From the IMG/VR virus record IMGVR_UViG_3300038318_000146, positions 1 to 20,339 of that record: 20,339 nucleotides of DNA, one strand, 5' to 3'. The first letter of the stretch is position 1. Each line of letters opens with the position of its first letter. Made by a program: the position numbers and the translations under genes. The notes below the pieces were generated by a model. The model was not told the DNA's origin, did no database searches, and saw only the letters and a list, made by a program, of their open reading frames with translations. Below, piece after piece: positions 4,942 to 20,339 of this stretch. The DNA comes from a virus.

Positions 4942-5430
4942 ATGAAACAGGGTGTAAAAGTTGGAGACAAGATTGTTTCCAATAAAAATGTAAAGGGTTG
5001 TGTGTTTTGTCAGAATCCAGATTTGAGTGCAGCAGTTGACCCAATTCTTTTTACGGCAAGTATTCCCATCAATGAACTGAAGAGTAAACTTGAAGCGGAT
5101 GGTATTTTTGTTGATGTTGCTGATCTCAAGTTACATCGTGAGCATATCTTTTTTGAGTATGATGAGAGTGCTGAATCCGATTTAGATATTGAGATTCAGA
5201 AGATTAAGGACACGGAAAATGTCGATGTTATTACAGAGGAACTTGCTAAGATTAACCTACTTGAACGTAGAATGGTTTTAGAGGGTAAGGAAAATAGTCC
5301 TACTCATGCAAAACTCTTACGTGAGAAGCGTGAACTTCTTTTGCTGAAAGCGCGTCTTGATGGTGAGATTGTTGATAAAGTTGAACACATTGTTCCTGCC
5401 TGGGTGCAGTATATTGAAGAAGAGAAATAA
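4942..5430 (+). CDS. terS: Terminase small subunit (start ATG 4942)
   Basis: Lies directly upstream of TerL with a TAATG stop/start overlap. N-terminal CVFC followed by helical and coiled segments. SD GAGGTG at 4930-4935. Confidence 0.7.
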   Translation: MKQGVKVGDKIVSNKNVKGCVFCQNPDLSAAVDPILFTASIPINELKSKLEADGIFVDVADLKLHREHIFFEYDESAESDLDIEIQKIKDTENVDVITEELAKINLLERRMVLEGKENSPTHAKLLREKRELLLLKARLDGEIVDKVEHIVPAWVQYIEEEK

Positions 5431-6905
5431 TGTCAAATATTGTTTATCATGGTAAACATCTTACTCTTTTTAACATTGCAAAATACATGCTTGGTTACGA
5501 GAAAATAACTAAAGATGTTCATAAAGAGTGGTGTGATAACCTTGAAGAAGTTATTAAGACTCGCAAACGTATTATGCGGTTAAAACCGCGTGGAACTTAC
5601 AAGACTACTATCTATGATGTTTCTTTTGTTATTGATCGTCTGCTTGATGATTACGTGAAACATGATGGTAAATTCACCTTACGTATTCTCATTACATCTG
5701 CAACCAACGATTTAGCAGAGCAGATTCTTTCTGAAATCAAAGAACAATTAAAGACTAATGAAAATTTGAAACAATTTTTTGCAGATTTCGGCAATGAAAA
5801 TATTATTGTCAAGGACAATCAGCAGGAAGTGGTTTTATATCCGCGTATTGTTAAGAAAGAACCAAATCTTAAAGCGCGTGGCGCTCTTGCTGCATTAACA
5901 TCAGAGCATTATGATATAATTATACTCGATGATGTGGTTAATAATGAAGATCGTGAATCTGCAACTATTAGAGAACAAAAGAAACGATGGTATAAAGATT
6001 TAATCTCTATTTTGGAGCCTGATGGTCTTTTAATGGTCATAGGCACGAGGTGGAGCGACAGTGAAATTTACGGCGAAATTATCGAGCAAAATCCAAAAAT
6101 ACCTGAATTTATGCGTTATGATATTGAGATTGATTCTATCATTGATGCTACAGGTAAACCAAAGTATCCATCCATCTACAACGAACAAAAGATTCAAGCA
6201 TTACGTATCGAAAAGGGTGCAGTAGAGTTTTCAAGTCAGTATTTAAATCAACCATTACCATCTGAAACACAGTTATTTAACATTGAAAATATGCATTATT
6301 ACACTGAACTGAAACTCCCACAGGAACGCGCACAGAATCCCTATTTCAAGGATTGTAGGCATGTTATTTACGTTGATCCTGCACTCGGTAATGAAAATGA
6401 TTATTGTGTAATTGTTGTGGGTGCAATTAAGGATCATGTTCTTTACGTAAGAGATTGTTGGTTAAGTAATACGTCACCGCCTAATGTCTCTATTGAAAAA
6501 ATGGTGTATTATTACAATTTTTATAATTGTGAAGAACTTGGCATTGAAACAAATGGTTTCCAGAGTCTTATTTCACAATTCCTCAAAGATCGTAATGATA
6601 AAATCAAAGACATGCGTAAGCGCATGAAGATTAAAGAAATTAAGAATCAGAAGAGAAAGCGGATTCGTATTGAGTCTGTTGAACCGTTTGTTACATCGGG
6701 AAAAGTCTTGTTCCGTGATGATTGGACAGAAGCGTATCCTGAGTTAATTAATCAATTAGTACGGTATCCGGTTCACAAACACGATGATGCCCCCGATGCG
6801 CTTGAAGGGCTTGTGCGAATGACAATCAATAGAGGTTCAGCATTAATAGACAAAGGAACACGCAGTAAACGTAAATTCATGATTGGAATAAATAGGAGAC
6901 ACTAA
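5430..6905 (+). CDS. terL: Terminase large subunit
   Basis: Walker A-like KPRGTYKTT, Walker B IILDDV, coupling motif IGTRW, and RNase H-like nuclease residues YVDPA, GIETNGFQ and HDDAPDALEG. Confidence 0.95.
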   Translation: MSNIVYHGKHLTLFNIAKYMLGYEKITKDVHKEWCDNLEEVIKTRKRIMRLKPRGTYKTTIYDVSFVIDRLLDDYVKHDGKFTLRILITSATNDLAEQILSEIKEQLKTNENLKQFFADFGNENIIVKDNQQEVVLYPRIVKKEPNLKARGALAALTSEHYDIIILDDVVNNEDRESATIREQKKRWYKDLISILEPDGLLMVIGTRWSDSEIYGEIIEQNPKIPEFMRYDIEIDSIIDATGKPKYPSIYNEQKIQALRIEKGAVEFSSQYLNQPLPSETQLFNIENMHYYTELKLPQERAQNPYFKDCRHVIYVDPALGNENDYCVIVVGAIKDHVLYVRDCWLSNTSPPNVSIEKMVYYYNFYNCEELGIETNGFQSLISQFLKDRNDKIKDMRKRMKIKEIKNQKRKRIRIESVEPFVTSGKVLFRDDWTEAYPELINQLVRYPVHKHDDAPDALEGLVRMTINRGSALIDKGTRSKRKFMIGINRRH

Positions 6906-8268: not shown

Positions 8269-8318
8269 CATATAACAACCTTTTTAATGTTGTTACAGGA
8301 AATAAAATAGTGATATAC

Positions 8319-9071
8319 ATGGAGTTGAATGTTGTTTATAATGAGGATTGTTTAGAAGGGATGAATCGGATTGAAGATAAGTCAGTTGATATGATTCTTT
8401 GCGATCTTCCTTATGGGACTACTCAAAACAAGTGGGATAGTGTTATACCCCTTGATTTATTGTGGGAACAATATAAAAGAATTATAAAAGATAATGGTGC
8501 TATTGTTCTTACAGGAAGTCAACCATTTACTTCATTGTTGGGCGCATCCAATATTAAAATGTTAAAATATTCATGGGTTTGGAAAAAAACATCAGTAACA
8601 GGTCATTTGAATGCAAAAAGAATGCCTATGAAAAATCATGAAGAAATATTAGTATTTTATCAAAAACAACCAACATATAATCCACAAAATGTAATTGATT
8701 TTAATAAGGTTGTTAAACGTGGTAATAACGGTAATTGTTATGGAGACAGTGGTAAGGTTAATTTTCAAGAAAAAACTAATTATCCACGTTCAATTTTAGA
8801 ATTTAAAAGTGTTGGTAAAACTATTCATCCAACCCAAAAACCTGTTGATCTCTTTGAATACTTAATCAAAACTTATACAAATGAAGGTGATACTGTTTTA
8901 GATAATTGTATGGGTAGCGGCACTACTGCAATCGCTTGTATGAACACGAATAGGAATTACATTGGGTTTGAATTAGATAAAGGGTATTATGATATTATTC
9001 TTGAAAGGATTAAGAATCATAAACCTGATGTAATTCAAGAGAGTAAACAAGGATTAGAAGCATGGTTTTAA
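8319..9071 (+). CDS. Orphan DNA methyltransferase, N4-C/N6-A beta class
   Basis: NEDCLEGM...MILCDLPYG (motif IV), HPTQKP, VLDNCMGSGTT (motif I), IGFELD. No cognate endonuclease nearby. Confidence 0.93.
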   Translation: MELNVVYNEDCLEGMNRIEDKSVDMILCDLPYGTTQNKWDSVIPLDLLWEQYKRIIKDNGAIVLTGSQPFTSLLGASNIKMLKYSWVWKKTSVTGHLNAKRMPMKNHEEILVFYQKQPTYNPQNVIDFNKVVKRGNNGNCYGDSGKVNFQEKTNYPRSILEFKSVGKTIHPTQKPVDLFEYLIKTYTNEGDTVLDNCMGSGTTAIACMNTNRNYIGFELDKGYYDIILERIKNHKPDVIQESKQGLEAWF

Positions 9072-12841: not shown

Positions 12842-12852
12842 GAGGAATGATT

Positions 12853-13692
12853 ATGGCACTTGGTAAAAGGTCTTTAGATAAAGCAGTAGAAGAGATACAG
12901 CAGAAGGAAGATCCTACTGCATCATTCTCCTATGATGATGCAATTCTTTCTCTTCAGAGTAAAGACATTATTTCGATTTATGGAGACAAAGGCACAGGTA
13001 AGACAACTACTACTTACGGTTTAATCGCTCCAGGTTCAAGTGTAAAAGTTTTATCGTTTGATACTAACAGTGTCTTACCAATGGAACTTGATTATATCAA
13101 GAATCAGAATCTTAATATTGAAGTGCTTAATTCTCTTCGACCATATGATCGTTCAACGGCAGAAGATATGTTACGCACTTCGGAAATTGTTTGTAAATGG
13201 AATGCATATTTACTTGATTATATTAAAGATAAAGATGAAAAAAATAATACTGAAACCGATTGGATTGTTGTAGATGGTATCGAACAGTATACAGAGATTT
13301 GTGAGAATGCGGGACGTTTTGAGTTAAAAATAGATAAGTATCAGGGTGTTCCCAATCCTACAGTTTGGAAGATTCGTAACATGCATATTGATAACCTACA
13401 TGATAAGTGTGTTGCAACTGCAAAGGTTGGCGTTATCTACATTATGTATCCCAAGACTGATACATCACTTGTAAGAATGGGTCAGGTTATTGAATCTGAA
13501 CGGACACCAAAATGGGTTAGTAAAGTAATGAAAGAGTCTCAAATAAAGATTCATACAACGAGTGAATTTGTTAAAGAAAATGCTCGTTACTTTGCAATTG
13601 TTGAATCGAGTAAGAAGGAGAAGAAGTATCCTCCAGGTAAGTATGATGTTACCGGGACAACTCTGTATAAACTAATTAATGGAAAGGAGTGA
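12853..13692 (+). CDS. P-loop ATPase, RecA superfamily (AAA_24 / Sak4-like recombination protein)
   Basis: Walker A GDKGTGKT, Walker B WIVVDG, and W..RN motif (WKIRN); lies next to the SSB. Confidence 0.7.
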   Translation: MALGKRSLDKAVEEIQQKEDPTASFSYDDAILSLQSKDIISIYGDKGTGKTTTTYGLIAPGSSVKVLSFDTNSVLPMELDYIKNQNLNIEVLNSLRPYDRSTAEDMLRTSEIVCKWNAYLLDYIKDKDEKNNTETDWIVVDGIEQYTEICENAGRFELKIDKYQGVPNPTVWKIRNMHIDNLHDKCVATAKVGVIYIMYPKTDTSLVRMGQVIESERTPKWVSKVMKESQIKIHTTSEFVKENARYFAIVESSKKEKKYPPGKYDVTGTTLYKLINGKE

Positions 13693-14485: not shown

Positions 14486-15412
14486 ATGATTACCAACAAA
14501 CTTTTTGTGGAGAAATATCGCCCACAAACGTTTGAGGATTACATTGGTAATGATACCACTGTAATTGCTGGATTACGCAAAGTTGTAAGGGAGAATCCAT
14601 TTTCTCTTCCTAATTTGATTTTTGAATCGTCGGCGGGAACAGGTAAGACTACACTTGCCAAAATCATTATCAATGAACTTGGTGCTGACAAACTGTATCT
14701 AAATGCATCAGATGAGCGTGGTATTGATACGGTGCGTGAAAAGGTTAAAGCATTTGCTTCTACTGTATCATTCAAGTCTGATGTGCCTAAGATTGTGCAT
14801 CTCGATGAAGCAGATGGTTTAACCGCTGATGCACAGAATATTCTCCGTAACATTATGGAAGAGTATTCTTCTCGTTGTCGATTCATCCTTACGTGTAATG
14901 TAATTTCAAAGATTATTGAACCACTCCGTTCTAGGTGTAAGGTTGTATCTTTTGGTAAACCTGCACGTAATGAGATTCTTACACGATTAAGACACATCTG
15001 CACCGAAGAGGACATTACCATTGACGATATAAGTCTCAATGAGATTATTGATGTCAATTACCCTGATATTCGCTCGATGGTGAAGTCTCTTGATATTTAC
15101 AAGAATCTTGGTGAATTAGACACTAAGAAGAATATCAATGTTGCAGATGAACTTTACACGTTAATCAAGGGTAGGAAAATCACTGAAGCACGTAAACTGT
15201 GGAATAGTAACACGGTTGATTACCGGAGCATTACATTCCAAATCTACCTGAAAGTGTGGAATGATGATTCTCTTTCTGCCTCTGACAAGATTTCTGCCAT
15301 TGAAATTGTAGCAGAATCAGATTACAGAATGGTTTATGGTGCTAATGCAGAGATTACCTTTGCAAACATGGCCTTTAAACTCATGCGTATTCTTGGTAAG
15401 AGAGGTGCGTAA
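14486..15412 (+). CDS. rfcS: Clamp loader AAA+ subunit (RFC small / T4 gp44-like)
   Basis: VEKYRPQTF, Walker A SAGTGKTT, LNASDERGIDTVR, Walker B LDEAD, LRSRC (SRC motif). Confidence 0.95.
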   Translation: MITNKLFVEKYRPQTFEDYIGNDTTVIAGLRKVVRENPFSLPNLIFESSAGTGKTTLAKIIINELGADKLYLNASDERGIDTVREKVKAFASTVSFKSDVPKIVHLDEADGLTADAQNILRNIMEEYSSRCRFILTCNVISKIIEPLRSRCKVVSFGKPARNEILTRLRHICTEEDITIDDISLNEIIDVNYPDIRSMVKSLDIYKNLGELDTKKNINVADELYTLIKGRKITEARKLWNSNTVDYRSITFQIYLKVWNDDSLSASDKISAIEIVAESDYRMVYGANAEITFANMAFKLMRILGKRGA

Positions 15413-15654
15413 TGGATAACAAATCAACCATTAAACTCATCAAGAAACATGGTAAGAGTTATAGTGGTAAAACCAATCTTATTAATTTTCTCGAAGGTAA
15501 ACATATCACACGCAAGGAAGCGATAAGTGCTTATTGTTACGATTGTCAGGGATATTGTGAAGATGGTAGAGTAGAGTGTGAGCAGTTACAGTGTCCTTTG
15601 TATTCTTACAGTCAGTTCAACAAATACAACATTAACAAGAGTGATAAAGAATGA
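15412..15654 (+). CDS. Small Cys-rich phage protein (AISAYCYDC...C...CPLY family)
   Basis: CxxC...C...CPL pattern common in uncharacterised phage proteins; overlaps its neighbours. Confidence 0.75.
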   Translation: MDNKSTIKLIKKHGKSYSGKTNLINFLEGKHITRKEAISAYCYDCQGYCEDGRVECEQLQCPLYSYSQFNKYNINKSDKE

Positions 15655-16202
15655 TTCTGGTAGACTATCAGATTAAACAGTGTATTGACTATGGAAACCT
15701 GATTATTACACCATTTGATGAAGAGAGTGTAAATCCCAATTCATATGACTTACACCTTTCAAATCAGTTCAAATATTACATTAATAACGGGCAGATGATT
15801 GATCCGTATGATAGGAATACAATTCTCTACGGACATGAAGTAATTGAAGGTAACACCTTTACAATTCAACCTGGAATGTTTGTGCTTGCTGTTTCACAAG
15901 AGACTATTGCCTTACCTAAGAACATTGCAGCAGCATGTGAAGGTAAATCATCTCTTGCTCGCCTGGGTCTTACCATTCATCAAACTGGAGGATGGATTGA
16001 TGCAGGTTTCGGTGGAACTCTTACGTTTGAACTCTACAATGTAAATAATCGTTCCATTCGTCTTTACAGTGGTATGCCAATTGCACAGTTAGTATTCTTC
16101 GAGGGTGAAACGTGTAGGGTAGGATATAATGAGAAATCATCTTCCAAATACAAGAATCAGACAGGTGCAACTCTTTCACGGTATCATTTGACTAAGGTGT
16201 AA
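15651..16202 (+). CDS. dcd: dCTP deaminase
   Basis: NPNSYDLHL, EGKSSLARLGL, IDAGFGGTLTFELYN, IAQLVF, KYKNQ. Confidence 0.93.
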   Translation: MILVDYQIKQCIDYGNLIITPFDEESVNPNSYDLHLSNQFKYYINNGQMIDPYDRNTILYGHEVIEGNTFTIQPGMFVLAVSQETIALPKNIAAACEGKSSLARLGLTIHQTGGWIDAGFGGTLTFELYNVNNRSIRLYSGMPIAQLVFFEGETCRVGYNEKSSSKYKNQTGATLSRYHLTKV

Positions 16203-16207
16203 TAAGA

Positions 16208-16498
16208 ATGAAACTTCTTTTTAATTACTCTGACTTTCACAAGTTCCCTCTCGATGCATGTTTCTCTACCTTACGCTTACTCCTCAATGACAATTTCAAT
16301 GGTGTCTACAAAGATGAGAATGGTAAACTCATTGCAGTCTTTGATTACAATGAAACAGAACGTGAGCAACGTATCATCCGTTCTGCATCAGGTTTTCTTG
16401 AAAATTATGGTTACGATTTAAAGCATCATACAGAGATTGTTGAATCGGTAGAGAACCTTGAATTTGTCACTAAAACGTGCGGTGTAGACTATGAGTAA
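16208..16498 (+). CDS. Hypothetical protein (96 aa)
   Basis: Operonic position; its stop overlaps the next gene's start. Confidence 0.7.
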   Translation: MKLLFNYSDFHKFPLDACFSTLRLLLNDNFNGVYKDENGKLIAVFDYNETEREQRIIRSASGFLENYGYDLKHHTEIVESVENLEFVTKTCGVDYE

Positions 16499-17441
16499 GA
16501 TTGATAAAATATATTCATCAAAATATTCACGTAGTTATACTAAAGATGAACTAGTGGCGATGAATAAATTATCTCTAGAAGAGAAGATAAAATTAACTAA
16601 TGATATTATAGATGAATTTTATACAGTAACTAATGGTTTAATGTATGTTTCTTTCAGTGGTGGTAAAGATTCTACTGTAATGGCTGATATTATTCTGAAA
16701 AGGTATCCCGATACACCTTTAGTTTTCTGTAATACGGGTTTGGAATATCCAGAAATTGTAGAATTTGTAAAACGTAGACAGAATGTAGTGTTTCTTAAAC
16801 CATCAAAACCATTTCATAAAGTATTAGAAGAACATGGTTATCCGGTTATTAGTAAGGAACAATCGCGTTATATTGAGGATGTGCAAAATAAAAGAAATAA
16901 TTGGGAAAGAAGATTAACAGGTAATAGTTTTGTTATTTCTAAAAAATGGAGATATTTAGTTGATGCACCTTTCAAAATATCTGAAAAGTGTTGTTTATAT
17001 CTCAAAAAAAATCCAATGAAAAAATATGAACATGAAACAAAGAGACAACCTCTGATTGGTGTAATGTTTAATGATAGTAATCTGCGTTTAAAATATATGT
17101 TAGAACAGGGTTTAATTCGTAATAATTCACGATTACAATGCACACCATTAGGTTTCTGGTCAGAGCAGGATATTTTAGAATACTTAGCAACATATAATCT
17201 TGATTACGCTTCAGTGTATGGTGATTTAACAAAGGAAAACGGTATATATAAATTATCAGGAGTACAACATACAGGTTGTATGTTCTGTATGTTTGGGGTT
17301 CATCTTGAGAAGGGCGAGAACAAGTTTCAACGAATGAAGAAAACACATCCTAAACAATGGGAATTTTGTATACATAAGTTAGGATTGGGTGAAATCCTTG
17401 ATTACATTGGTGTTGACTACGGTAAAGATAAATTCTGGTAG
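16491..17441 (+). CDS. PAPS-reductase-family PP-loop protein 1 (Fe-S motif)
   Basis: SFSGGKDS PP-loop, FCNTGLEYPE, KCC, TGCMFC. Confidence 0.9.
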   Translation: MSKIDKIYSSKYSRSYTKDELVAMNKLSLEEKIKLTNDIIDEFYTVTNGLMYVSFSGGKDSTVMADIILKRYPDTPLVFCNTGLEYPEIVEFVKRRQNVVFLKPSKPFHKVLEEHGYPVISKEQSRYIEDVQNKRNNWERRLTGNSFVISKKWRYLVDAPFKISEKCCLYLKKNPMKKYEHETKRQPLIGVMFNDSNLRLKYMLEQGLIRNNSRLQCTPLGFWSEQDILEYLATYNLDYASVYGDLTKENGIYKLSGVQHTGCMFCMFGVHLEKGENKFQRMKKTHPKQWEFCIHKLGLGEILDYIGVDYGKDKFW

Positions 17442-17450
17442 AGGTGCATT

Positions 17451-17939
17451 ATGAGTAAGATGGATGTGCATTATTCCTCAAAGGATATGGAATGGGAAAC
17501 TCCGCGTGATTTATTCGATGCATTGAACGACGAATTTAATTTTACGCTTGATCCGTGTGCAACATCACAGAACACGAAGTGTTACAAGTTCTTCACCATT
17601 GAAGATAATGGACTTCACAAAGATTGGAGTAAAGATATAGTCTTTATGAATCCACCTTACGGTAAGGAAATACCACGATGGGTAGAGAAGGCATATAATG
17701 AAGCATTATGTGGTGCTACCGTTGTTTGTCTTATTCCTGCTCGCACTGATACATCATATTGGCATAAATACATCATGCTTGCTGATGAGATTAGATTTAT
17801 CAGTGGTAGAGTTAAATTTACTAATCCTACTCATCGTAAACCTATGGCAGCACCATTTCCATCCTGCATTGTAGTATTTGGTGAACGTATGCGTAATGGA
17901 TTAACGAGTAAGGAGTGTATTAAATGCCGTTCAATTTAA
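17451..17939 (+). CDS. Phage N6-adenine DNA methyltransferase (phage Dam family)
   Basis: WETP..LF..L..EF.FTLDPCA, VFMNPPYG, LIPARTDTSYWH, IRFISGRVKF, APFPS. Confidence 0.93.
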   Translation: MSKMDVHYSSKDMEWETPRDLFDALNDEFNFTLDPCATSQNTKCYKFFTIEDNGLHKDWSKDIVFMNPPYGKEIPRWVEKAYNEALCGATVVCLIPARTDTSYWHKYIMLADEIRFISGRVKFTNPTHRKPMAAPFPSCIVVFGERMRNGLTSKECIKCRSI

Positions 17940-17940
17940 T
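17920..17940 (+). repeat. 21-bp direct repeat, copy 1 (TTAAATGCCGTTCAATTTAAT)
   Basis: Exact match to 18734-18754. Confidence 0.95.
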
Positions 17941-17958
17941 ACGTAATGGTGATTGATT

Positions 17959-18732
17959 ATGTTACGTGAAACAACATTTGAAGGTGTAATTGACAAGGAA
18001 TTAGTTGCAATAGAGCGTATTAAACAGTATGAACCAGAAGAAGGGTATTACGTTGCATTTAGTGGTGGTAAAGATAGTATTGTAGTTTATGATTTGGTGA
18101 AACGTGCAGGTGTTAAACATGATGTTCATTTTAGTGCGACTACAGTTGATCCACCTGAAGTTGTCAAATTCATAAAAACATATTATCCAGAAGTTGATTG
18201 GATTCGTCCTAAAAAATCAATGTTTCAAATAATTGTTAAACATATGATGTTACCTAAAGGTAATATGAGATTTTGTTGTCACGAATTAAAAGAAATTGGC
18301 GGCAAAGGAAGAACTGTTGTTCTTGGGGTGCGAAGAGAAGAATCAGTGAGGAGAAGAAACAGATTGGTATATGATGAATCTAAACGCCAAAAAGGAAAAA
18401 TGTTTCTTAATCCGATAGTTGATTGGTCTGAAGATGAAGTGTGGGAGTATATACATAAATATAATATACCTTATCCATGTTTATATGATGAAGGTTATAA
18501 ACGGATAGGTTGTATTTTATGCCCATTACAAAATATCAAAGGGAAAGAAAGAGATAAAGAACGGTATCCTAAATATTATAATGCTTATTTACTCGCTATA
18601 AAAAGAATGTTAAAAAAAAGAGAAGAAATTGGTAAACCGTTTAGAAATGGTAAAACACCGGAAGAAGTAATGAATTGGTGGATATATGGTAATAAAAAAC
18701 AAATAATCGAGTGTGAAAATGCATGGTGGTGA
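17959..18732 (+). CDS. PAPS-reductase-family PP-loop protein 2 (Fe-S motif); start ATG 17959
   Basis: AFSGGKDS, RFCC..LKE, LGVRREES..R, NPIVDWS..EVW.YI, LYDEGYKRIGCILCP; SD GGTGA at 17948-17952. Confidence 0.92.
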   Translation: MLRETTFEGVIDKELVAIERIKQYEPEEGYYVAFSGGKDSIVVYDLVKRAGVKHDVHFSATTVDPPEVVKFIKTYYPEVDWIRPKKSMFQIIVKHMMLPKGNMRFCCHELKEIGGKGRTVVLGVRREESVRRRNRLVYDESKRQKGKMFLNPIVDWSEDEVWEYIHKYNIPYPCLYDEGYKRIGCILCPLQNIKGKERDKERYPKYYNAYLLAIKRMLKKREEIGKPFRNGKTPEEVMNWWIYGNKKQIIECENAWW

Positions 18733-18733
18733 T

Positions 18734-18754
18734 TTAAATGCCGTTCAATTTAAT
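18734..18754 (+). repeat. 21-bp direct repeat, copy 2
   Basis: Exact match to 17920-17940; contains the start of the 18738 gene. Confidence 0.95.
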
Positions 18755-19244
18755 GAAGCGTATCATCAGTAAGGAGCAAATCTACCCTTCACAACTTGTA
18801 GGAAAGGAATACATGCTTCTCCGTATCTTTTCACAGGATGTAATGTATTTGGAGGAAGCGGATAAACTTAATCAATATTTATTCAAGATCAATCCATCTA
18901 TCTTCCGTGGATTACTTCTCCTACACGTTCAACAATTGAATCATATGCCTACCTGGATTCGTAAGGATAAGGTGAAGAAGGACAAGTTGGATACACTACT
19001 TGATGATTATTACGAGAAAACATCAAGTGCGCTTGATATGAGTAAGAAAGAGTTTGATGAGTATTCACCTCTTATTAAGATGCATATCAGTGACAAAGAT
19101 AACATGAAAACATTCCTTGCAGAAATGCAAGCAGATGAACAAATGTTTAAGAAACAGAAGGTTGCACTCGTAATGCCTGATAAAACACGCATTGAACAAT
19201 CGAAGAAGTCACATCAATGCAATTCACTTGATTACTTCTTTTAA
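18738..19244 (+). CDS. Clamp loader A subunit, T4 gp62-like
   Basis: YMLLRIFS...ADKLNQY...WIRKDKVK...YY aligns by eye with short gp62 homologues (NxxLS...N...WLRKDK...YY). C-terminal clamp-binding-like SLDYFF. Directly upstream of PolB. Confidence 0.75.
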   Translation: MPFNLMKRIISKEQIYPSQLVGKEYMLLRIFSQDVMYLEEADKLNQYLFKINPSIFRGLLLLHVQQLNHMPTWIRKDKVKKDKLDTLLDDYYEKTSSALDMSKKEFDEYSPLIKMHISDKDNMKTFLAEMQADEQMFKKQKVALVMPDKTRIEQSKKSHQCNSLDYFF

Positions 19245-19273
19245 CTCTTTTTTTCATTTCAGTAAGTTTATAA
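19245..19273 (+). promoter_or_regulatory. Oligo-T terminator followed by the TATA box (TTTATAA, 19267-19273) of polB
   Basis: A T-run follows the stop codon. The TATA box ends 24 nt before ATG 19298, and no SD is present. Confidence 0.6.
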
Positions 19274-19297
19274 CCATACAAACTATAATCATTACAC

Positions 19298-20339
19298 ATG
19301 ATTATAACCGAATCGATAGGGGATTCTATTATCATTCGTGGTCGAGATGAACACGGTGAGCGTTATGAGCAACGTATCAATCGCTTTCAACCCTATTTTT
19401 ACATTCCACGGCAGACTGTTGTAGGTGAAACTTATTATTCTCTGTTTGGAGAGACATTACAGCGTATTACGTGCGTTAATCAAAAGGACTTCAAATCATC
19501 GAGAAAACTGCATGAAATAACGTATGAAGGTGATGTGCCCCCTACTATTAGATACCTGATTGATAATTACTACCAAAAAGGTATTGAAAGTGAGGTGATT
19601 AGGGTATGTTTTTTTGATATTGAGACGGATGGAATACCCAATATCACGAAGGCAGACACTATGATTACTTCCATTGCTGCCTATGACAACTTCCGTAATC
19701 TCTATTATTGTTTTACAGTTGCACCTGATGGAGTAGTCAGTAAGGACAAATACACTCGTAAGATTCATTTTGATGGAAATGAAGTTGAAGCGCGTGTATT
19801 TATGTTTGCTACTGAAAAGGAAATGCTTAATAAATTTCTTGCATTGGTGCAACAACTTGATTTTGATCTCTTCCTTGCATGGAATGGTGATAGATTTGAT
19901 TATCCTTACCTATTTAACCGCATGAAAGCGTTGAAAATTAATCCACGTTTGTTATCTCCCATTAAACAGATGGGTAAGGGTTATGGTGACATTGTAGACA
20001 AACCACGCTGTAGGATTTGGTTAGATTTAATGGTGTGCTACAAGAAACTGTCTACACAGGAAATGGAATCATACTCCCTGGATTACATATCACGTTATGA
20101 ATTGGGTGCAGGTAAGATTGAGCATCAAGAAAAGTTTGAGGACTTTTGGCGCAATAATCTTGACAAGTTCATCGAGTATAATATCAAAGATGTCTACCTC
20201 ATGGTAAAGATCGAAGAGTCAAAGGGCATTGTCAAATATTTTGATACTATTCGTCGCTTTACTTTTTGCAGTTGGTATGATGTATTCTACAATAGTAAGG
20301 TACTTGATTGTTTCTTTTTACTCAAGGCTAAAGAGTATG
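19298..20339 (+). CDS. polB: Family B DNA polymerase, N-terminal and 3'-5' exonuclease part (truncated by the window end; not in ORF track)
   Basis: Hand-translated open frame from ATG 19298 to the end: FQPYFY, ExoI FFDIET, ExoII AWNGDRFDYPYL, SYSLDYI, ExoIII YNIKDV. Confidence 0.95.
   Translation, partial: MIITESIGDSIIIRGRDEHGERYEQRINRFQPYFYIPRQTVVGETYYSLFGETLQRITCVNQKDFKSSRKLHEITYEGDVPPTIRYLIDNYYQKGIESEVIRVCFFDIETDGIPNITKADTMITSIAAYDNFRNLYYCFTVAPDGVVSKDKYTRKIHFDGNEVEARVFMFATEKEMLNKFLALVQQLDFDLFLAWNGDRFDYPYLFNRMKALKINPRLLSPIKQMGKGYGDIVDKPRCRIWLDLMVCYKKLSTQEMESYSLDYISRYELGAGKIEHQEKFEDFWRNNLDKFIEYNIKDVYLMVKIEESKGIVKYFDTIRRFTFCSWYDVFYNSKVLDCFFLLKAKEY

Follow-up and report, generated by a model that had tools for sequence, protein, structure and literature searches.

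A single-gene cassette between two copies of an overlapping gene junction in the DNA-modification island of an uncultured tailed virus

We analysed the IMG/VR virus record IMGVR_UViG_3300038318_000146 over its whole length of 20,339 nucleotides (nt; hereafter the window, estimated to be 29% complete), in which a gene for an enzyme of the PAPS-reductase family, here called PAPS2, forms an 814-bp cassette between two copies of a 21-nt direct repeat. Without the cassette, the gene for a Dam-type DNA methyltransferase overlaps the gene that follows it, and the repeat reproduces this overlap. The repeat is probably a duplicate of the overlap junction, produced by recombination in a hypervariable island, and not the footprint of a dedicated recombinase. 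The site lies in an island of DNA-modification genes that is part of the replication module; the virus itself is tailed and uncultured, comes from anaerobic digesters and landfill, and has a probably archaeal host, probably a methanogen.

The 21-mer (TTAAATGCCGTTCAATTTAAT) is present in exactly two copies with 0 mismatches between them, and no third copy was found in the window when up to three mismatches were allowed. Its chance expectation was 0 (100 shuffles), and with two mismatches allowed the repeat extends to 26 nt. The features of the occupied junction are as follows.

17451-17939, plus strand: Dam-type DNA N6-adenine methyltransferase (PF05869, E 5e-33; phrog_111, E 6e-59)
17920-17940, plus strand: copy 1 of the direct repeat, at the junction of the Dam stop and the next-gene start
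17924-17956, plus strand: relic open reading frame (ORF) of 10 codons, MPFNLIRNGD*, with its stop 2 nt before the cassette ATG at 17959
17948-17952, plus strand: GGTGA, a Shine-Dalgarno (SD)-like motif of PAPS2, 6 nt before its ATG and inside the relic ORF
17959-18732, plus strand: PAPS2, the cassette gene (PF01507 PAPS_reduct, E 2e-25; phrog_424, E 2e-42)
18734-18754, plus strand: copy 2 of the direct repeat, which holds the working start of the next gene
18738-19244, plus strand: conserved 168-aa protein upstream of PolB, the next gene

The Dam C-terminus, KCRSI* (the last five codons and the stop), falls within copy 1, and an AAGGAG lies 8 nt 5' of the ATG at 17924. At the other end, the last codons of the cassette gene (TGG TGG TGA, 18724-18732) place a GGTGA 5' of the copy-2 ATG at 18738. 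Sixteen of the 21 repeat nucleotides are exactly the overlap of Dam and the next gene at the empty site, and removing one unit from the window restores this 16-nt overlap. These details agree throughout with an initial annotation made from the sequence, which had given the repeat positions, the KCRSI* terminus, the small ORF, the AAGGAG and the new GGTGA, and had argued that the repeat preserves both the end of Dam and the start of the next gene. The empty site that it had predicted from deletion of one unit is real, being present in at least eight distinct related contigs.

These contigs belong to about 20 related loci that were found via the downstream protein, the cassette protein, Dam and an alternative left neighbour, and that come from anaerobic-digester, fermentation, wastewater and landfill metagenomes. 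Their gene maps show a variable island bounded by the conserved orf96 on one side and the conserved 168-aa gene 5' of PolB on the other. The empty site, with one repeat copy and the 16-nt overlap, was found in L001, L004, L006, L007, L009, L012, L014, L016 and L017. In other loci Dam is replaced by rSAM, a 337-aa radical-SAM protein encoded by a 1014-nt gene (phrog_9298, E 1e-58). The left part of the island in the window and the gene orders observed are listed below.

16208-16498, plus strand: orf96, the conserved gene that bounds the variable island on its left
16491-17441, plus strand: PAPS1, a second PAPS-reductase-family gene
orf96, Dam, next gene: L001/L008, L004/L010, L009, L012, L014, L016
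PAPS1b (a homologue of PAPS1), orf96, Dam, next gene: L006, L007
PAPS1b, orf96, PAPS1, Dam, next gene: L017
orf96, Dam, PAPS2, next gene: L005/L019
orf96, rSAM, PAPS2, next gene: L002, L003, L011, L013, L018
orf96, PAPS1, Dam, PAPS2, next gene: the window

Assembled contigs from other runs, which cannot show rare variants, extend this picture. A contig of run X8 (a sister sample) joins 16500 to 18723 with 994 nt between them; since 10 + 994 + 10 equals 1014 nt, the length of the rSAM gene, this contig represents rSAM followed by the next gene without the cassette. In the wastewater runs X2 and X3, the empty-site junction and the rSAM start are seen at contig ends, beside contigs that cover the cassette. 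Taken together with the gene maps, these contigs establish that Dam and rSAM each occur in genomes that carry the cassette and in genomes that lack it. The empty or alternative alleles that had been expected in relatives are therefore there, and the single-gene indel polymorphism is real. A joint from 17440 to 17949 in X3 (side 29, depth 4) and 'skips' near 18588-18735 in X2 and X3 were too weakly supported to be counted as haplotypes.

The repeat-flanked cassette is old. Both repeats are kept in six other carriers (L002, L003, L005, L011, L013 and L018), and the two copies differ at 2-5 of the 21 positions in every carrier except the window. PAPS2 itself falls into three deep alleles (that of the window, that of L005 and that of the rSAM group), and the window allele is 77-80% identical to the others at the nucleotide level; most backbone genes are 82-89% identical, and the fastest, orf80, 79-82%. 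Because the repeats have diverged and the alleles are deep, the arrangement must predate the divergence of these viruses, which does not agree with the recent capture proposed in the initial annotation. The G+C content at third codon positions (GC3) is 0.19 for PAPS2 and 0.21 for PAPS1, compared with 0.30-0.40 for the neighbouring genes. This marks both PAPS genes as imports, and the low value of PAPS2 makes the empty state the deeper ancestor.

The cassette has also come or gone repeatedly. On a maximum-likelihood tree of the adjacent gene, built with the repeat excluded, its presence changes six times, and at least four changes remain when only strongly supported clades are used and polytomies are resolved favourably; the left neighbour changes two to four times on the same tree. 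In four separate lineages, genomes that carry the cassette and genomes that lack it have a next gene with a near-identical 5' end. Precise loss or gain, which the initial annotation had allowed for, has thus happened several times. Two routes explain this recurrence: repeated precise deletion between the repeats combined with ordinary homologous recombination in the long flanks, or crossovers inside the 21-nt patch. By the second route, an empty Dam genome and a genome with rSAM and the cassette would yield Dam with cassette and rSAM without cassette as reciprocal products.

For the origin of the first duplication, and for the recombination enzymes involved, we infer the following scenario. 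At the empty site, the 16-nt overlap gives Dam and the next gene one ribosome-binding region in common, so that an inserted gene would spare both neighbours only if the overlap were present on both sides of it. The junction was probably duplicated by illegitimate (staggered) joining and then kept by selection. After this old insertion, the repeat would have served as a substrate for precise repeat-by-repeat deletion, and also as a short homology patch at which genomes with and without the cassette, and with either left neighbour, could recombine. Deletion and short-patch recombination together would produce recurrent gain and loss. The duplicated start codon now opens the relic ORF that contains the GGTGA of the cassette.

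The recent history of the window is less straightforward. Its two repeat copies do not differ from one another, and both equal the one copy that its nearest relatives (L006, L007 and L017) have at their empty sites; all three of these relatives lack the cassette and have a backbone about 95% identical to that of the window. The flanks match L006 up to the edges of both repeats, and identity between the cassette and L005 is 92-100% over the first ~120 nt, compared with about 85-89% for the backbone. The identical copies, the flanks and the L005-like start favour a fairly recent event in this lineage, either re-insertion through the repeat or conversion between the copies. One possible explanation, which we hold tentatively, is that a cassette-free genome similar to L006 or L017 recently re-acquired the cassette from a cassette-bearing donor by recombination within the 21-nt junction, through a double crossover or through single-crossover integration of a looped-out copy; two identical copies would thereby be regenerated. 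This would account for copies that carry the empty-site allele of the nearest relatives in the window and are diverged in other carriers, for a match to L006 that reaches both repeat edges, for the L005-like start and for three nearest relatives without the cassette. However, the flanks are explained equally well by a recent repeat-by-repeat deletion in the relatives, for which no donor is required, and the body of the window allele has diverged like the fast-evolving backbone genes, as predicted by vertical descent.

The opposite possibility is that there was a single ancient insertion and only losses since, so that the window retains the ancestral occupied state, every empty site is a precise deletion between the repeats, and Dam and rSAM were reassorted when the long flanking genes underwent ordinary homologous recombination. 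Direct repeats of 21 nt offer a simple mechanism for deletion, this route can yield each of the four haplotype combinations, and the cassette and its repeats are old. Nevertheless, at least four independent deletions would be required, along with gene conversion to make the copies of the window identical, and the low GC3 points to the empty state as the deeper ancestor. We regard losses alone as a possible account, but less likely than not.

We also considered what sets the length of the repeat, by comparison with other insertions in this virus group. Indels were judged by alignment-block overlap in the empty genome and by inspection by eye. PAPS1 is flanked by an older repeat, whose copies are as follows.

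16490-16522, plus strand: left copy of the older repeat, degenerate over 33 nt with 12 nt exact (TATGAGTAAGAT)
17450-17482, plus strand: right copy of the older repeat, which is the true Dam start

PAPS1 begins with 11 codons formed by the left copy, which is a duplicate of the overlap between the orf96 stop and the Dam start; these codons (MSKIDKIYSSK) copy those of Dam (MSKMDVHYSSK). PAPS1 is absent in most relatives. Its homologue PAPS1b, 57% identical, lies at another junction (between dcd and orf96) in L006, L007 and L017, and the homology between the two begins only at residue 20. Two further cases are indels of small ORFs on the minus strand, of 235 nt (G001:14681-14917) and 139 nt (G002:39039-39179), flanked by degenerate repeats of 12-14 nt that cover the ATG and first three codons of the downstream gene (ATGRTTACWGA) or the region from SD to ATG. 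In agreement with the initial annotation, which had paired the cassette with the case at 16491, the start-duplicating pattern is therefore recurrent.

Repeat length goes with the overlap of the flanking genes. The 16-nt overlap of Dam and the next gene corresponds to the 21-nt repeat, and the 8-nt overlap of orf96 and Dam, at the PAPS1 site, to 12 exact within 33 degenerate nt. No real flanking repeat was found around methyltransferase Y191 (1-nt overlap, TAATG) or PAPS1b (5-nt spacer), and no flanking direct repeat around the methyltransferase gene at 8310-9071 (5-nt spacer; missing from G003). These three insertions, where the flanking genes overlap by 0 or 1 nt, do not fit the mechanism targeting gene starts that had been suggested in the initial annotation. 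Rather, the repeat is found where the signals of two neighbours interleave, and selection that kept those neighbours intact after staggered illegitimate joining accounts for this with no need of start-targeting machinery.

Some additional observations were made in the course of this comparison. The gene at 8310-9071, an N6_N4 DNA methyltransferase, is cleanly absent from G003, which has 12 nt instead and shows no overlap between the flanking genes. Positions 15372-15402 and 15428-15458, 56 nt apart, form a repeat of 31 nt with 74% identity; residues 6-16 of the ORF that follows the gp44-like clamp loader (IKLIKKHGKSY) are similar to the C-terminus of that protein (FKLMRILGKRG), and this repeat may be a trace of an old junction duplication. 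A measure of exact-match flanking repeats over all indels of G001-G003 was uninformative, since older repeats are degenerate. A likeness between the end of orf96 and an internal part of PAPS1 (GGTGTAGACTA and GGTGTTGACTA) was at the level of many chance repeats and was dropped.

The relic ORF consists of the duplicated start of the next gene and 18 nt that travel with the cassette. Its start, its frame and its TGA 2 nt 5' of the cassette ATG are kept in 7/7 carriers, and the GGTGA at 17948-17952 is invariant in their alignment, whereas the peptide itself varies (P/L, R/Y, D/V). Between alleles, identity is 85-97% in the 39-nt leader and 80-100% at the third positions of the first 25 codons; at third positions over the remaining gene, the deep alleles reach only 61-65%. 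Leader types are shuffled relative to gene bodies. As an observation beside these, high synonymous conservation spans the leader and the first ~150 nt of PAPS2 (17920-18110). The conservation of the leader fits a constrained region of translation initiation or coupling, and it also fits frequent short-patch recombination at the junction. Judging from these alignments, translation of the cassette is probably still coupled, via the relic ORF, to that of the upstream gene.

Several points weigh against the reading of the repeat as a duplicated overlap junction kept by selection. Identical copies are unique to the window and need an extra event, either a recent re-insertion via the repeat or gene conversion. 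In the rSAM context, where there is no overlap between rSAM and the next gene, the duplication still covers about 32 nt (ATGGTGGTGA plus the 21-mer), so that necessity does not fix the length exactly, and the link between length and overlap comes from only five insertions and two small ones. Coupling is read from conservation only, which recent recombination at the junction could explain instead. Finally, the original insertion may have taken place either beside Dam or beside rSAM.

The initial annotation had also raised reversible excision. If a DNA-modification gene were switched on and off by a programme inside individual virus populations (phase variation), perfect 21-nt repeats would permit it, and occupied and empty junctions do occur together in the metagenomes X2 and X3. 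These co-occurring forms lie on diverged strains (contig identities 90-99%), not on one clone, and the source run holds a single occupied contig at a depth of 216. We consider such a programme very unlikely.

A dedicated integron- or homing-like system, with a recombinase or nuclease specific for the junction sequence that carries cassettes without promoters to the starts of genes, could in principle account for the start-duplicating pattern at four junctions and for a promoter-less cassette with translation signals kept on both sides. We found no tyrosine or serine recombinase in G001-G003, three relatives of 62-69 kb that are 90-100% complete; PF00589 had no match in these genomes, while the control genomes all scored, and none among the scanned ORFs of the window. 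At the cassette ends there are no inverted repeats, only weak inverted pairs of 10-12 nt at least 70 nt apart, and no attC-like structure or hairpin was found at its 3' end. The cassette encodes a PAPS_reduct protein only, so that the transposase and terminal inverted repeats of a transposon or insertion sequence are both missing, as the initial annotation had already stated for transposase, integrase and inverted repeats. No endonuclease ORF, as expected of a homing element, lies in or beside the segment (16208-19244). The search for other genes between the same repeats, which had been put forward as a check, returned only the PAPS2 family in 7/7 carriers, and no different cassettes or cassette arrays were seen at the site among these carriers or in an IMG/VR pattern scan. 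In the same scan, matches to the 18-nt core of the repeat outside this virus group were single and unrelated, and none of them had a related context. In addition, the four repeats have no sequence in common beyond SD and ATG features, and other insertions have no repeats. The integron-like route of the initial annotation thus lacks a recombinase in three near-complete relatives, an attC-like repeat and more than one gene, and we consider a dedicated system highly improbable. Last, an assembly artefact (a collapsed or chimeric repeat), which the initial annotation had named as a concern and which is a general risk of metagenome assembly at repeats, is ruled out by an independent Logan contig of the source run that covers 15400-20339 in one piece and by the same architecture in the six other carriers, which come from other samples.

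The closest description of the cassette among known systems is the repeat-flanked indel of mosaic phages. In mycobacteriophage LRRHood, 29-bp repeats surround a 1.35-kb segment and are single-copy in relatives (Pope et al, 2011; PMC3029335), and gp68 of Island3 carries a copy of its neighbour's C-terminus (PMC3029335). The present case likewise comprises a gene-sized segment between short direct repeats that are single-copy in relatives, with no mobile-element genes; in both, the repeat is located where a gene ends or starts, the insert may copy a neighbour's terminus, and either gain or loss may lie behind the indel. In contrast to those indels, the repeat here is the exact overlap of two genes that are probably translationally coupled, the haplotypes are numerous enough for recurrence to be counted, the left neighbour alternates, and the viruses come from methanogenic habitats and are probably archaeal.

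Other categories fit less closely. Morons, as defined by Hendrix and colleagues, are extra genes between genes that are adjacent in relatives, and classical ones have their own promoter and terminator. The cassette resembles them as an accessory gene of atypical composition between genes adjacent in relatives. In a scan limited to bacterial signals, it showed neither an excess of sigma-70-like sites nor a terminator, and it would use the SD and start signals of the operon instead; such a scan carries little weight for a virus whose host is probably an archaeon. For restriction-modification genes, 'insertion with long target duplication' was reportedly described by Nobusato et al in 2000. Such insertions, found in cellular chromosomes, have repeats of more than 30 bp around restriction (R) and modification (M) genes, sometimes reaching into the 3' end of a gene next to the insert, and arise by an unknown mechanism (Furuta et al, 2010; PMC2853133). 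They are similar in carrying foreign, often low-GC genes of modification type at a duplicated target with no transposase or integrase. Here, however, the repeat is 21 bp long when exact and 26 nt with two mismatches, and it reaches about 32 nt solely beside rSAM; one gene for a PP-loop enzyme takes the place of R and M genes, and the genome is viral. Integron cassettes are similar in outcome only, as promoter-less single-gene units present or absent at a fixed site; unlike in integrons, there is no IntI, attI or attC, cassette array or alternative cassette.

With regard to the enzymes, phage annealases recombine short diverged homologies (De Paepe et al, 2014, PMC3945230; Sak4, PMC5928155); such assays used homologies that ran to hundreds of bp and contained perfectly matching stretches of 11-298 bp (PMC3945230). 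Exchange via short, partly diverged patches is common to that relaxed-homology mosaicism and to our case, and the window has a match to AAA_24 (Sak4-family) at 12847-13692, which is sub-threshold in Pfam. The difference is that this virus would be using a patch of 21 nt, and a role of the AAA_24 protein in cassette recombination is conjecture. A more far-reaching but doubtful idea is that, in this virus group, the short SD-start/stop junctions of tightly coupled genes act as portable recombination linkers, through which annealing-type recombination by the virus itself inserts and excises promoter-less accessory cassettes and moves them from one junction to another. If true, this would be an integrase-free functional analogue of the integron, and the exchange would perhaps be fast enough for population-level on/off variation of DNA-modification genes.

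As for the individual genes, PAPS2 is a PAPS-reductase-family PP-loop enzyme with the motif SGGKDS, and PAPS_reduct is its only Pfam domain. Two further alleles are 93-95% identical, P0002 and P0003 (named Methanoculleus sp.), and the NCBI name of P0003 hints at a methanogen host. In P0003, whose protein is 95% identical, the A8 run at 18612-18619 reads as A7; this reading frameshifts the last ~40 residues and may reflect a sequencing error or a natural homopolymer inactivation. PAPS-reductase homologues found in a search of genome contigs were all distant (at most 51% identity). A megablast of 16000-20339 against GenBank phages gave no match, and the only matches by distant blastn were to unrelated phages of Staphylococcus, Clostridium and Geobacillus, in their Dam and PAPS genes. 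For the 168-aa protein, no match was obtained in Pfam, PHROG, NCBIfam or PDB sequences, which leaves the 'gp62-like' label of the initial annotation without sequence support there, and an AlphaFold model from seven close sequences was too poor to use (pLDDT 45).

The orf96 stop overlaps the ATG of whichever gene comes next, and PAPS1, Dam and the radical-SAM gene all start with MSK. Trp-stop or similar ends (TGGTGA, TGGTAG, AAGGTGTAA) are common among genes in window positions 15400-19300 and in L001-L018, and the last codons of a gene thereby supply a GGTG(A) ribosome-binding motif for the next one. W is the final residue of PAPS1, PAPS1b, PAPS2, rSAM and PolB; the C-terminal tails of rSAM and PAPS2, both ending in WW*, are specific to this lineage, and distant homologues lack them. 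Despite their low GC3, both PAPS genes lack AGCT and GGCC, like the remaining genome. Other arrangements were also seen. phrog_33262 indicates that fusions of PAPS reductase and Dam exist. In the distant virus L020 (2643-4684), homologues of rSAM (33%) and PAPS2 (60%) lie two small ORFs apart, an arrangement suggesting that the two enzymes cooperate. The island also accepts a 191-aa DNA methyltransferase (phrog_757), found between gp44 and orf80 at L001:3871-4446.

Unrelated to the cassette, the terminase large subunit gene (5430-6905) has an in-frame insertion of ~1.06 kb in G001 and G002, at a position corresponding to ~5935-5947 of the window (G001:65638-66705 and G002:21934-22984), which is absent from the window and G003. 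It lies just after the DD of '...IILDDV', starts with Cys, contains the LAGLIDADG-like 'FLGFFIADGS' and ends '...GQCN|T', and looks like an intein with a homing endonuclease.

Taken together, the cassette reveals no new mobility mechanism and is a well-resolved case of a known type of event, for which the empty, occupied and two left-neighbour haplotypes are enough to count recurrence. It provides a natural example of how a compact, coupled viral operon gains and sheds accessory genes with its neighbours unbroken. The island as a whole is a hotspot of modification-enzyme swapping in a probable methanogen virus, with Dam, a second methyltransferase, three PAPS-reductase-type genes and a radical-SAM gene, and is useful for studies of the arms race between viruses and their hosts in archaea.

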